Of a DNA stretch of 64,000 nt, positions 43,171 through 47,031 are shown in pieces (within the stretch, counting starts at the first letter, position 1; each line of letters starts with the position of its first letter). The position numbers and the translations under genes were made by a program. A model generated the notes under the pieces. The model had not been told where the DNA came from. It saw only the letters and a list, made by a program, of their open reading frames with translations, and did no database searches. Source of the DNA: Chloroflexota bacterium (lineage in GTDB: Bacteria; Chloroflexota; UBA11872; VXNJ01); NCBI GenBank assembly GCA_965261345.1, contig OZ253449.1, forward strand, positions 2,080,001 to 2,144,000. The letters run 5' to 3'.

Positions 43171-44261
43171 CCACTCCCGGGCCGGAAGCGGTCTACCTGG
43201 CGGGCCTGGATCTGCCCGGCCGAAGGGCCTGGTCGCCGCGGGACAGCCTGGCCGAATTGGCCGAATTGGCCACCGCCGCCGGAGCTCGGGTCTGCGGGCA
43301 GCAGTTGGTGCGAGTTCGCCGACCGGGGCCGCGCTTGTTGGTCGGTACCGGCCAGGCCGATTCGGTGATCGCGGCGGCGAAGGCGGCCGGCGCCCAAGCG
43401 ATCGTATTTGACGCCGAATTGCATCCACGCCAGCAGCGCAACCTCGAGTCGCTGGCGCAGATGAAGATCATCGATCGTACGGCGTTGATCCTGGATATAT
43501 TCGCCCAGCACGCAACTTCGGCGGAGGGCAAATTGCAGGTTGCGCGCGCACAAGTTGAGTACCTGCTGCCGCGGCTTTCGCAGCTCTGGGTGCAGTTCTC
43601 GCGGACCGGTGGCGGGATCGGCACGCGTGGCCCTGGTGAAACCCAGCTGGAGCGTGACCGGCGGGAATTACGAGCGCGCTCCACTCAGCTTGACCGCCAG
43701 ATCGAGAAGGTGCGCGACCGACGCGCTCGCGCTCGCCGGAAACGTGAGCAATTCGGAATCGTTGTCGCCCTCGTTGGTTACACCAACGCCGGCAAGACAA
43801 GTCTTCACGCCGCCCTCTCGGGAGCCGGTCGAGCCGGGCACGGCCAGATGTTTGCGACCTTGGATCCGCTGGTGCGGCGGGCCACCCTGCCCGGTGGCCT
43901 TCGGGTGCTGGTAGTCGATACGGTCGGCTTTATCCATGATCTGCCGGAGGGATTGATCGCCGCGTTCAAGGCGACCCTGGAAGAGATCTCGGGCGCCGAC
44001 CTGATAGTGCACGTAGCCGATGCGGCCGCGCCGCGCCTGGCCGAAAGGATCGATACGGTTGTGTCTACGCTTGAGGACCTGGGGTTGGGTGATCGACCCA
44101 GTTTGCTGGCGCTAAACAAGGCCGATCTGGTTCCGCCCGGAAATCCTGCACCGGCTCCGGGCGGAGTACTGGTGTCCGCCCGAACCAAAGTTGGAATAAA
44201 CGAGTTGGGGATGGCAATCGAACGGGCACTGGCGAGCCGGTCGGTCGCGCCACGGGCGTAG
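43167..44261 (+). CDS. hflX: Ribosome-splitting GTPase HflX (short form)
   Basis: DRTALILDIF, GIGTRGPGETQLE, GYTNAGKT, DTVGF, NKAD and SA. The conserved N-terminus extends upstream to a CTG at 43167. Confidence 0.92.
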   Translation: MTTPGPEAVYLAGLDLPGRRAWSPRDSLAELAELATAAGARVCGQQLVRVRRPGPRLLVGTGQADSVIAAAKAAGAQAIVFDAELHPRQQRNLESLAQMKIIDRTALILDIFAQHATSAEGKLQVARAQVEYLLPRLSQLWVQFSRTGGGIGTRGPGETQLERDRRELRARSTQLDRQIEKVRDRRARARRKREQFGIVVALVGYTNAGKTSLHAALSGAGRAGHGQMFATLDPLVRRATLPGGLRVLVVDTVGFIHDLPEGLIAAFKATLEEISGADLIVHVADAAAPRLAERIDTVVSTLEDLGLGDRPSLLALNKADLVPPGNPAPAPGGVLVSARTKVGINELGMAIERALASRSVAPRA

Positions 44262-44294
44262 GGCCGCACCCGAGCGCTTCCGCCGCCGGGGCGG

Positions 44295-45302
44295 CTAGTC
44301 GCGGTCCTGCGGCTGACCCGGCCGGGCCGCCACCGCATCCTCCAACGGTTGTGAATAGCGATCAAAGGCCGCCCGCAGATGCCCGACCGAATAATGGGCG
44401 TAGATCGTCTTGGTGGTTTCGGGAGACGCGTGGCCGAGGAGGTCTTGAACCTGCGAAAGGTCGGCTCCACGGTCTAACAGGGTGGTCGCCTTTAGGTGGC
44501 GAAAGTGATGGGTTGATGCCGACACGCCGCAGCTTTGGGCATGCCGCTTTACGGTCAACCAAATCGTCTGTGGGGACAGGCGCAGGCGCTCGCCGCGCGG
44601 GCCGGGCCTCGATCCCTTGGTGTGGCGAATAAAAAGCGGTTCAAAATGGTCGGCGCGGCGGTCCAGGTATGCATCGATGTGACCCAGCGTTTGGGGATCA
44701 AAGAAAACGACCCTTTCCTTATTGCCCTTGCCGCTGATGATGGCTTCCCCGACGCGGCCGCTGGCAAGGTCGGCGCGATTGAGCGAGGCGACTTCGGCCC
44801 GCCGCATCCCGGTTGCGTATAGGGTGTTGAGGATTGCCCGGTCGCGGAGCAGGCGCAACCCCAATTTTCCGGTCGGATCGCGATCGGGCAGGGGAGTCTG
44901 ATTTGCGTTATGAACTATCAGGGCCAGGGTCGAATCGACCCGCGGGGTCGAATAGTTTTTCCTGACTTTTACCCGCTGAAGCTGCTCGCGCGAACGTTCG
45001 AGCGAAATCTGCGGAACGGCCGCTTCGCCCGCCAGATACCGTAGCAGTCCGCGCAATCCGGCCAGGTAGGTCTCCACCGTGGACAGGTGATCGCGACCGT
45101 GGCGATCGACCAACCAGAGATAGAACTGCTCCAGGCTGCGTTCGGGCAAATCGTCGAGCCCTGATCGGGCCGGGTCGATCCGCCGGTCATGGAGGTATTT
45201 GCAGAATGCGTTAAGTCCGGTCGCGTAGGTGCTACGGGTGGCCGGTGACTTGGCACGGTTTACCCGCAGAAAGCTGGCGATCGCCGATTCAATTGTTTGC
45301 AT
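44295..45302 (-). CDS. XerC/XerD-like tyrosine recombinase
   Basis: N-terminal SPATRSTY helix; RDRAIL..LYATGMRRAE (R), GKGNKER (K), HHFRH (HxxR), LLGHAS (H) and IYAH (Y). Confidence 0.93.
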   Translation of the reverse strand: MQTIESAIASFLRVNRAKSPATRSTYATGLNAFCKYLHDRRIDPARSGLDDLPERSLEQFYLWLVDRHGRDHLSTVETYLAGLRGLLRYLAGEAAVPQISLERSREQLQRVKVRKNYSTPRVDSTLALIVHNANQTPLPDRDPTGKLGLRLLRDRAILNTLYATGMRRAEVASLNRADLASGRVGEAIISGKGNKERVVFFDPQTLGHIDAYLDRRADHFEPLFIRHTKGSRPGPRGERLRLSPQTIWLTVKRHAQSCGVSASTHHFRHLKATTLLDRGADLSQVQDLLGHASPETTKTIYAHYSVGHLRAAFDRYSQPLEDAVAARPGQPQDRD

Positions 45303-45330
45303 ACTTTACATAATAACGAGATTGGCAAGT
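45303..45330 (-). other. dif-like 28-bp site abutting the recombinase start codon
   Basis: Minus strand reads ACTTGCCAATC-TCGTTA-TTATGTAAAGT-ATG. 11+6+11 layout, ACTT/AAGT inverted ends, 9/28 GC. Right arm matches the B. subtilis dif arm TTATGTAAACT at 10/11. Confidence 0.6.
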
Positions 45331-45411
45331 CGCACTCGCCGGATCGCCGGCCAGCCGGCCACAGGTTCGATAATCCGCTAGTCGAAAGAACCCTCTCGTT
45401 GGGGGGCAACA

Positions 45412-47031
45412 TTGCAGAATCGCGAGTTCGCAGCGGCTGACCAGCCACAGCCCCGATGGCGGAAATTGCTGGCGGCGCCATGGGTTTTTGCCGGATTGAT
45501 TGGGCTGTTGGCCAGCGGGCTGGTTACCTCCCTCTACTTCCCGCTATTCGAACTCGGTTGGATGGCCAACCCAGCCTTTGACTTCGTCGATCTGCTGATC
45601 CGCTATTCGCCGGGAGCCTTGGCGACGTGGTCGATCGAGACTTTGGGTCAGCTTGGAAAGCAACTGCTAGAGGCCTCCGGGTTATTGACCTGGATCGCAA
45701 TGGGAGCAGTCATATCCGCTGCAATCACCCGATTCGCGCCGCCGGCATTTACGGTCAGCCAGCGGGCATTGCTGGCGGGCGGAGCCTACGGGGCGTTGTG
45801 CGTGGGAGTCGAAATGCTCGCCGAACTGTCGTTTTACGGGCTAGGCGGGATTTTCTGGATCGCCGCCACCGCCCTGCTTTTCGGGTTTTTGGCCCAAATG
45901 TTCGCCCCATCCGGAGCGATCGCTGAACCGCCAGCTGACCCTCCGACCTGGCCGCCACCACCGCGCCCGGGCTGGTTGCAAACCCGTTCGCGGCGGGAAT
46001 TGCTGGCAATGTCGGCCGCGACCGCGATCATCGGTTCGATCGTTGCGATCGCCGCCCAGCGGAATCTATTAACGGCAACGATCGCCGACAGCGCGGGTCC
46101 GGTTGAAACGCTTATAGGATTTGATCCGGACTTTGTTCCAGCCGCCAACACCCGGCCGCTGGTTACCGCCAACCCCGATTTTTACCGGATCGACATCTAT
46201 ACCCGCACCCCGACATTTGCCCGATCCAACTGGTCGATGCAGGTCGCAGGACTGGTTGACCGCGAACTGAATTTTTCAATCGAGGACATCGAAGCGTTGC
46301 CGGCCCGAGAACAGTACGGGACGCTGCAGTGCATTTCCAACGAGGTTGGGGGGGAGCTTATTTCAACCACCAAGTGGACCGGTGTGCCACTGGCCGAGGT
46401 GCTCGACCTGGCCGGGGTAAAACCCGGTGCCGAGGATGTGGTTTTTTATGCCCCGGGCGGGTACGACGATTCGATTCCGATCGCCAAGGCACTTGAACCG
46501 GGCACCCTGCTGGCATACGGCATGAATGGGCAGCCACTACCGCCCGAACACGGATTTCCGCTCCGAGCTTACATTCCCAACATCTACGGGATGAAAAATG
46601 TCAAATACATAACGCGCATCGAGGTGGTTGATTCCAACCACGAGGGCTATTGGCAGCGTCGCGGATGGTCGGACACCGCGATCATCAAGACCACCAGCGC
46701 CTGGGATCTGCCAGGCGGTAGTCGGATCGGACGGATCAATCCCGGCGAAGACATCATCGGGGGCATTGCATTCGGCGGGGCGCGGGGAATTTCCGCAGTG
46801 GAATGGCACCATACGGATAGTGATATTTGGACTCCGGCCGAGCTTGAGGACCAATTGAGTCCCACCACCTGGCGGCGCTGGAAAGCCGACTTGGGTCTGG
46901 AACCGGGCACTCATCGGTTGGAGGTTCGAGCCTATGACGGCAACGGCGATCCGCAAACGGAAACCCGAACTCCCACCCACCCCGATGGGGCCAGCGGATA
47001 TCACCTCATCCAGCTTTCGGTTAGCGGGTAG
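45412..47031 (+). CDS. Polytopic membrane molybdopterin-dependent oxidoreductase (sulfite oxidase family)
   Basis: Four TM segments, internal SRRELL plus a fifth TM; FYRID, LQCISN (Mo ligand), WTGVPL, HGFPLR, YGMKNVK and GYWQRRGW; Ig-like C-terminus. Confidence 0.88.
   Translation: MQNREFAAADQPQPRWRKLLAAPWVFAGLIGLLASGLVTSLYFPLFELGWMANPAFDFVDLLIRYSPGALATWSIETLGQLGKQLLEASGLLTWIAMGAVISAAITRFAPPAFTVSQRALLAGGAYGALCVGVEMLAELSFYGLGGIFWIAATALLFGFLAQMFAPSGAIAEPPADPPTWPPPPRPGWLQTRSRRELLAMSAATAIIGSIVAIAAQRNLLTATIADSAGPVETLIGFDPDFVPAANTRPLVTANPDFYRIDIYTRTPTFARSNWSMQVAGLVDRELNFSIEDIEALPAREQYGTLQCISNEVGGELISTTKWTGVPLAEVLDLAGVKPGAEDVVFYAPGGYDDSIPIAKALEPGTLLAYGMNGQPLPPEHGFPLRAYIPNIYGMKNVKYITRIEVVDSNHEGYWQRRGWSDTAIIKTTSAWDLPGGSRIGRINPGEDIIGGIAFGGARGISAVEWHHTDSDIWTPAELEDQLSPTTWRRWKADLGLEPGTHRLEVRAYDGNGDPQTETRTPTHPDGASGYHLIQLSVSG

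Follow-up and report, generated by a model that had tools for sequence, protein, structure and literature searches.

The described systems closest to the locus discussed here – a Xer-type tyrosine recombinase gene (xer) of a Chloroflexota bacterium and the 28 bp directly in front of its start codon – are the words that orient FtsK or SpoIIIE on the chromosome (KOPS, SRS and AIMS), the XerD-specific dif-like sites (XDS) of Bacillus subtilis and the Xer/dif modules of bacteria and archaea. The known KOPS-type words are G-rich or purine-rich 7-8-mers, among them GGGNAGGG, GAGAAGGG and GAAGAAG (PMC3384302). XDS lie in the B. subtilis terminus, where they unload Smc-ScpAB (PMC11840125, PMC11894783); our comparison with these sites, described by Karaboja et al. 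2021, is drawn from these two citing papers. Single-recombinase systems keep dif beside the recombinase gene (PMC5357621), and haloarchaea carry a dif-like sequence upstream of the xerA operon (PMC11840125). Archaeal XerA is paired with a near-palindromic dif of two 11-bp arms around a 6-bp spacer (11-6-11), accompanied by short polar words with their strongest skew at dif (PMC2958812). For the Chloroflexi/Chloroflexota, the dif predictions of Kono et al. are limited to three Dehalococcoides genomes (PMC3025954), beyond which our literature search found nothing on Xer, dif or KOPS; supplementary tables (dif lists, KOPS candidates) were not covered and may bear on novelty. Xer/dif is thus far barely charted in this phylum.

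The DNA analysed here, hereafter the window, is a stretch of 64,000 nucleotides corresponding to positions 2,080,001-2,144,000 of a genome assembled as one contig of 2,393,548 bp. A first-pass annotation had read the 28-mer in front of xer as a functional dif, fused to the start codon of a single recombinase and doubling as its promoter or operator. Our analysis points elsewhere: the 28-mer is probably not a recombination site, its right 11 bases being instead a copy of a polar word that points towards dif, and the true dif being a palindrome at the chromosome terminus. Across the order to which this genome belongs, the word would run from the origin towards the true dif, become denser on approaching the terminus and flip exactly at dif, itself predicted to be a perfectly or nearly palindromic 11-6-11 site.

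The cumulative GC skew of the genome has its minimum at dnaA (1,187,872) and a broad plateau that begins at ~2.27 Mb, spans the contig ends and stops at ~0.17 Mb. Outside the window, at genome positions 1555-1582, lies an intergenic and perfect 11-6-11 palindrome, ATTAGACATAA-TCATTA-TTATGTCTAAT, in which all 11 arm pairs match and which is only 9.8 kb (0.4% of the genome) from the dnaA antipode. In each of the four single-contig genomes of the genus this same site ranks first, with 27-28 of its 28 positions kept and with arms that are identical or differ by one change (28/28 in G006, identical arms in G002, 27/28 in G003), and it lies roughly opposite dnaA in the closed genomes of the genus. 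At up to three mismatches, 34 genomes of other genera gave no match to it. With its inverted arms, its rank as unique best site, its terminal position and its conservation in close relatives, this palindrome is, as far as sequence can tell, the best dif candidate. The first-pass annotation had itself named a better dif elsewhere, in the company of a XerC/XerD pair, as an observation that would speak against its model; such a site is what we find opposite dnaA, and no pair of NCBIfam XerC/XerD equivalogs accompanies it.

The polarity of the word leads to the same place. When copies of TNKACATAA are ordered by position, their orientation flips between 1557 and 1572, that is, between the two arms of the palindrome. 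On the leading strand the logo of the word is T-N-[G/T]-ACATAA, and the copies nearest dif read ACTTTACATAA. Leading-strand copies outnumber lagging-strand ones by 98 to 8 (92%) in the whole genome and by 53 to 2 within 300 kb of the palindrome, and the density of the word rises from 2.8 per 100 kb elsewhere to 9.2 near the palindrome. Altogether 106 copies are observed, against ~37 expected from base composition, and the best of 29 permuted-core controls is only 73% leading. An unbiased count singles out GACATAA as the most strand-skewed 7-mer (104:31) and GACATAAT as the most strand-skewed 8-mer (45:7), and TTACATAA is skewed 22:1. In the form TTATGT[AC]AA, present in 31 copies, all 10 on the plus strand lie left of the origin, and 20 of the 21 on the minus strand lie right of dnaA, the remaining one being 32 kb to its left. 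The polarity does not stem from gene orientation, because the leading-oriented copies are distributed as 38 antisense, 22 sense and 38 non-coding ones, and long open reading frames (ORFs) are divided 654:683 between the strands. The window alone holds five copies of the word, compared with 0.91 in shuffles, and four of these five – including the one in front of xer – are leading-oriented.

The same arrangement recurs in relatives, for which polarity was counted in G003, G006, G011, G013, G019 and G021. Every copy of TTKACATAA conforms in G021 (44/44), G013 (60/60) and G006 (28/28), as do, in G003, 18 of 18 among the matches listed (26 in all); for TNKACATAA in G019 the count is 42 of 45. In G006, a member of the genus, the flip brackets the palindromic dif. 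In G011, G013, G017, G019 and G021 the flip coincides with a palindrome that shortly precedes the xer orthologue, and the palindromes at those flips – ACTAGATATAA-N6-TTATATCTAGT, ATCAGATATAA-N6-TTATATCTGAT, AGTAGAACTAA-N6-TTAGTTCTACT and AGTAGAGCTAA-N6-TTAGTGCTACT – are each flanked by convergent copies of ACTTTACATAA. They lie 1.3-8.2% of genome length from the dnaA antipode.

Outside the genus, a palindrome stands upstream of xer at 15 of 24 loci, within the 1.5 kb or less of upstream DNA examined (that of G011 lies just beyond this stretch), with xer 0.3-1.5 kb from its palindromic dif; in a distant Chloroflexi contig, a perfect palindrome precedes the xer orthologue by 59 nt. At the six loci of this genus no palindrome was found within 1.5 kb of xer, and the distance from the xer orthologue to the palindrome is 270-430 kb in each closed genome. 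The module of adjacent gene and site that had been proposed for this locus therefore describes the relatives and not this genus. Because xer is next to dif in most related genera, the word sits there between the gene and dif; in the present genus, gene and predicted dif lie ~270 kb apart, and the word is kept at the gene.

The dif arms vary from genus to genus (GACATAA, GATATAA, GAACTAA, GAGCTAA) and the flanking 11-mer does not, so that the word is not simply a copy of the local dif arm. A search for the canonical inner pattern ATAA-N6-TTATGT in other genera returned no match in five closed relatives, whose dif arms differ. In this genome the word shares 8 of 11 positions with the dif arm, and in the genus the dif arms contain the word. 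We take the word to resemble a Xer arm, judging by the B. subtilis site that the first-pass annotation quotes.

Set against this background, the 28-mer makes a poor dif. On the minus strand, window positions 45330..45303 read ACTTGCCAATC-TCGTTA-TTATGTAAAGT, and the ATG of the xer ORF follows directly. The counts first reported for it – no spacer before the ATG, a G+C content of 9/28, ends of ACTT and AAGT, arm symmetry of 6/11 – are all correct, as are the lack of a Shine-Dalgarno sequence (GGAGG-type) before the start and the presence of a TATTAT that ends 7 nt before the ATG. A symmetry of 6/11, however, is near chance for 11 positions, and only three of the six inner pairs are complementary, fewer than the more than four (positions 7-12 versus 17-22) by which Kono et al. 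recognise dif (PMC3025954). In a generic dif scan the 28-mer matches 10 of 13 specified positions, a score of at least 10 being reached by 85 sites in the genome and a score of 12 by 12 sites; it is not outstanding as a dif candidate. Its position agrees no better with that function. Between it and the palindrome, where the polarity flips, lie 269.8 kb, or 11% of the genome; the xer start, at genome position 2,125,302, lies before the skew plateau, and at 2.125 Mb the GC skew is still climbing and the polar word passes the 28-mer without flipping, which contradicts the idea that 45.3 kb of the window might mark the terminus.

The comparison of upstream regions, carried out on 30 orthologous loci (six of this genus and 24 of other genera), separates the two halves of the 28-mer. 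The left arm and the spacer are unconserved: within the genus only a TTTGC-like pentamer recurs, and in the other genera no match to the left arm was found upstream of xer. The only invariant part is TATTATGTAAA, retained in six of six genus genomes amid diverged flanks. Over the whole set, TTATGT[AC]AA occurs at most 70 nt from the start codon in 17 of the 30 loci, at distances of 11-68 nt, and further upstream in four more (L002, L003, L016 and L019); in the upstream DNA examined, a same-direction copy is lacking from eight loci of genus g8. What rises above chance, judging from these alignments, is thus the conservation of the right arm at orthologous positions and not the 28-mer as a whole. 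The motif conservation that the first-pass annotation proposed as a check is borne out for the right arm, at variable distance, and fails for the left arm and spacer; since the right arm is conserved, its caveat that only a half-site might be present fits well. The fusion to the ATG is not a fixed feature, because in two of the six genus genomes the 11-mer lies hundreds of nucleotides upstream of the xer start – 368 nt in G001 and 574 nt in G005 – owing to an insert of 360-560 nt between the two. The 11-mer in plus-strand orientation matches the leading strand of its replichore, and the exact right arm TTATGTAAAGT has a single occurrence in the genome. As a chromosomal dif, then, the 28-mer is rejected, given the terminal palindrome elsewhere, the unconserved left arm and spacer, and the three of six inner pairs.

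The recombinase itself, P0001, shows Pfam matches to Phage_integrase (93.7 bits) and to the SAM-like N-terminal domain Phage_int_SAM_1. Against the NCBIfam models it scores 143.1 bits for XerC (cut-off 335.15), 137.1 for XerD (329.6), 133.9 for XerA (220) and 81.8 for XerS (267); it is thus about equally close to XerC, XerD and XerA, far under every cut-off, and belongs to none of these equivalogs. Its best match among solved structures is Pyrococcus abyssi XerA, and when it is aligned with this protein (4a8e) and with Escherichia coli XerD (1a0p), the catalytic Arg, Lys, HxxR, His and Tyr are all in place. These R-K-HxxR-H-Y motifs are retained in 30 of 30 orthologues, and one orthologue per genome, at 50-74% identity, is present in 40 of 41 related genomes.

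There are two tyrosine recombinase genes (PF00589) in the genome. The second, at 723,705-724,613 on the minus strand and outside the window, encodes a XerD-like protein that scores 210 bits against the XerD cut-off of 329.6 and that, compared with E. coli XerD, carries R148Q, K172R and H244R. In all six genomes of the genus, and in none of the 24 from other genera, the protein has lost Arg-I (replaced by Q, H or A) and His-II (replaced by R); order-wide, 29 of 30 genomes lack the hairpin lysine. In the genus the gene is nevertheless still an intact ORF. A single recombinase, as originally claimed, is plausible in the sense that the only other tyrosine recombinase lacks catalytic residues, so that the genome would plausibly encode just one catalytically competent Xer; the prediction is drawn from sequence, and the paralogue count itself is two. 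Since no other tyrosine recombinase of this genome has all the catalytic residues, P0001 would most likely be the enzyme that cuts the palindrome.

How does the word compare with those of described systems? Like KOPS, SRS and AIMS, it is over-represented, more than 90% leading near dif, denser towards the terminus and inverted at dif, here and in relatives alike, and the genome encodes an FtsK with a gamma domain; the word agrees with the KOPS prediction criteria given in PMC3384302. Unlike KOPS, it is A+T-rich in a genome of 62% G+C, 9-11 nt long, similar to a Xer arm and contained in the dif arms of the genus, and its binding by FtsK-gamma is putative. We suggest that it may serve as an orienting signal for a terminus-directed machine, the first candidate being FtsK, which would read it through its gamma domain in a KOPS-like manner, and the second a Xer-type protein.

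The resemblance to XDS lies in the presence of dif-like half-sites outside dif, concentrated towards the terminus, and in the fact that a XerD-like protein need not be catalytic for such a role (PMC11840125, PMC11894783). The word differs from XDS in its tens to ~100 copies over two thirds of the chromosome and in its strict polarity, and the genus differs in its apparent lack of Smc. Searches with TIGR02168, with PF06470 (SMC_hinge) and by tblastn with the 1186-residue Smc of a relative did not find Smc in this genome (ScpAB and other condensins were not searched), and SMC_hinge likewise found none in seven of seven genomes of the genus (G000-G006); Smc was found in five of six genomes of other genera. 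An XDS-like role is weakened because the word keeps its polarity in a genus in which Smc was not found.

As for the recombination modules, the related genera, each with one fully catalytic Xer encoded beside its site, recall XerS/difSL and XerH/difH. The site, however, is a 28-bp palindrome with a 6-bp spacer rather than the 31-bp difSL, P0001 falls far below the XerS cut-off, and in this genus 270-430 kb separate the gene from the site, and a catalytically defective XerD-like gene is also kept. The near-palindromic 11-6-11 dif and the short polar words with a skew peak at dif are shared with archaeal XerA/dif; P0001 nonetheless scores well below the XerA cut-off, its host is a bacterium with FtsK, and the archaeal polar words are 4-mers. 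Canonical XerC/XerD-dif, finally, likewise combines two Xer-like paralogues with a 28-bp 11-6-11 terminal site and FtsK, but here the dif arms are perfectly symmetric, both proteins are far under the XerC/XerD cut-offs, and the paralogue departs from canonical XerD by lacking the beta-hairpin lysine in 29 of 30 genomes and, in the genus, Arg-I and His-II as well.

Several observations weigh against the account given here of a dif-pointing, KOPS-like word and a palindromic dif. In G011 the looser word TNKACATAA conforms at only ~78%, a figure for which 100 of 115 places are listed and the rest inferred from totals. A scan by KOPS criteria – exact or one-N 7- and 8-mers at most 300 kb from dif, with at least 15 leading copies and a skew of at least 0.9, a class that excludes a 9-mer with two loose positions – returned seven words, of which only CATAATNA and TANACATA overlap the polar word; the other five, TAATTCA, ATNTTAG, ATTGTTGC, CAGGACAC and GATTAACG, are unrelated to it. 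Three draft genomes of the genus, with a completeness of 80-90%, yielded no match to the palindrome at up to three mismatches. Known KOPS are G-rich, purine-rich octamers (PMC3384302), and the A+T-rich, Xer-arm-like character of the word means that it may be read by something other than FtsK. The copy in front of xer, moreover, is invariant in non-coding DNA in six of six genus genomes, which is unexpected for an individual copy of a KOPS-type word. For this last reason, the alignments suggest that the xer-proximal copy probably has an added local role on top of its general one, as part of a promoter or as an operator.

A possible but rather doubtful form of such a role, compatible with a polar word, is an operator half-site: a Xer-type protein, either P0001 or the XerD-like paralogue, would bind the 11-mer as a monomer over the xer promoter and repress its own or its partner's gene. 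The invariance of TATTATGTAAA between diverged flanks would fit, as would the placement of a copy no more than 70 nt from the start codon at 17 of the 30 loci, its overlap with the sole -10-like hexamer and the 8 of 11 positions that the word has in common with the dif arm of this genome. Less easily accommodated are the distances of 368 nt (G001) and 574 nt (G005) between the 11-mer and the start downstream of it, the eight g8 loci devoid of a same-direction copy in the upstream DNA examined, and the constancy of the 11-mer while the dif arms change from genus to genus.

We regard it as unlikely that the conserved block is simply the -10 region of xer, serving a leaderless or short-leader mRNA and having nothing to do with Xer or polarity at this place. 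Several loci do have the look of promoters: in G025, G036 and G019 a TTGACA lies 17 nt before TAAAGT or TAAACA, with the ATG 7-9 nt further on, the form TTGACA-N17-TAAAGT standing 7 nt before the ATG in two g7 loci; and in this genus TATTAT occupies the corresponding distance of 7 nt. Yet 10-11 bases are conserved, more than a -10 hexamer, the presumed -10 register differs between genera, and a consensus scan of 44200-45700 found no sigma-70-type site with a -35 partner. Furthermore, 27 of the 31 genomic copies of TTATGT[AC]AA lie within open frames of at least 100 codons, and it thus does not mark promoters in general; in relatives, an identical 11-mer also points at dif from the opposite side, with no xer gene after it; and in two genomes it stands hundreds of bases upstream.

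Improbable, too, is a decayed remnant, that is, an ancestral dif once located beside xer in this genus of which the 28-mer would be what is left. The spacer TCGTTA is one base away from TCATTA, the spacer of both the dif of this genome and the xer-adjacent dif in L073, and the left arm has 5 of 11 positions in common with the present dif arm. In relatives, however, 0.3-1.4 kb separate dif from the promoter-proximal word, which is an element of its own, the 11-mer of this genome (G000) matches the word and not the dif arms of relatives, and the spacers at this place differ among genus genomes. As for a working dif that doubles as promoter or operator for one Xer, the 11-6-11 layout adjoining the ATG and the habit of single-recombinase systems (PMC5357621), shared by the relatives studied here, of keeping dif beside the gene are outweighed by the terminal palindrome with its polarity flip, the 11% of the genome in between, the rising skew and unflipped word, the unconserved left arm and the three of six inner pairs, which make it a very remote prospect, largely refuted by position and conservation.

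Returning to the polar word that points towards a palindromic terminal dif, we tentatively sketch a joint reading, to which we would give no great weight. The order would mark the polarity of its chromosomes with Xer half-sites, and a Xer-type protein – the XerD-like paralogue without its catalytic lysine, or the catalytic Xer – would read them instead of or besides FtsK. In this genus, a new palindromic dif would have arisen where two convergent words lay 6 bp apart at the terminus, replacing the ancestral dif beside xer; the XerD-like protein would have lost two more catalytic residues and Smc would have been lost; and the copy at the xer start would couple xer expression to occupancy by the same reader. 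Whatever the reader, an atypical orienting word that is both A+T-rich and similar to a Xer arm bears on how such words and their readers co-evolve, and the order offers a natural series that runs from xer beside a palindromic dif with a lysine-less XerD-like protein to xer remote from dif, a XerD-like protein carrying three catalytic substitutions and Smc not found. For metagenome-assembled chromosomes of this order, a precise predicted dif marker is now available.

The features of the window are collected in Table 1.

Table 1. The xer gene, the elements in front of it and the further copies of the polar word, in window coordinates.
Feature	Position	Strand	Remark
xer gene, P0001, 335-residue tyrosine recombinase	44295..45302	-	ORF list, Pfam, structure alignment
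Conserved 11-mer TTATGTAAAGT (ACTTTACATAA on + strand), xer-proximal copy of the polar word	45303..45313	-	orthologue conservation
TATTAT, -10-like hexamer, possible leaderless promoter	45310..45315	-	overlaps conserved block; sequence reading
Spacer TCGTTA and left arm ACTTGCCAATC	45314..45330	-	mostly unconserved; alignment of six genus loci
Polar word copy TAGACATAA	22742..22750	+	leading-strand orientation
Polar word copy TTTACATAA	22948..22956	+	leading-strand orientation
Polar word copy TTGACATAA	58891..58899	+	leading-strand orientation
Polar word copy TGTACATAA	47364..47372	-	contrary orientation, one of 8 exceptions in the genome

The neighbours of xer are a convergent gene for an HflX-type GTPase and, 109 bp upstream, a divergent molybdopterin-oxidoreductase gene (45412-47031). 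Between the two divergent genes, ~55 nt upstream of the 11-mer (window ~45361-45375), a GATTATC is conserved in five of six genus genomes; on the plus strand it reads GATAAT, which is -10-like and lies ~40 nt before the molybdopterin-oxidoreductase gene. The insert that separates the 11-mer from the ATG in L002 and L003 (G005 and G001, respectively) includes a block of ~45 nt, nearly identical in both, that could be a small mobile element or a small RNA.

The three nearest copies of the right arm in the genome (156,026; 2,295,302; 2,337,799) were set aside, as they lie on the other strand inside paralogous coding sequences and are not sites of their own. The three paralogous small genes concerned share a coding stretch with the near-copy TTATGTAAAGA on its non-coding strand, and all three copies are leading-oriented.

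Elsewhere in the genome, 16 dif-like 11-6-11 sites were counted, compared with 0-2 in shuffles, at positions that include 1,295,054, 1,298,289, 1,322,761, 1,331,934-1,336,994, 1,339,246, 1,602,901 and 1,636,882. Several of them are in a defence island of lower G+C content, where a DUF1883-TIR gene and a reverse-transcriptase gene are enclosed by two intergenic ones; a 1600-residue Type ISP restriction-modification gene contains others, as does an inverted spare copy of its specificity domain, and an IS3-type integrase gene lies between the two. Xer-type sites may here be used by cassettes that they flank and by a specificity switch that can invert. The site at 1,339,246 bears the dif arms of another genus.

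Several AAA+ ORFs of 300 and 312 residues give identical-scoring, weak matches to the DnaA model (58,922; 188,164; 223,824; 234,997; 238,429; 1,573,543; 2,318,798; and others); many are near the terminus, and they look like repeated insertion-sequence helper genes. Finally, some skewed 9-mers, such as GTTTCAATCCCCG, appear to be CRISPR repeats.

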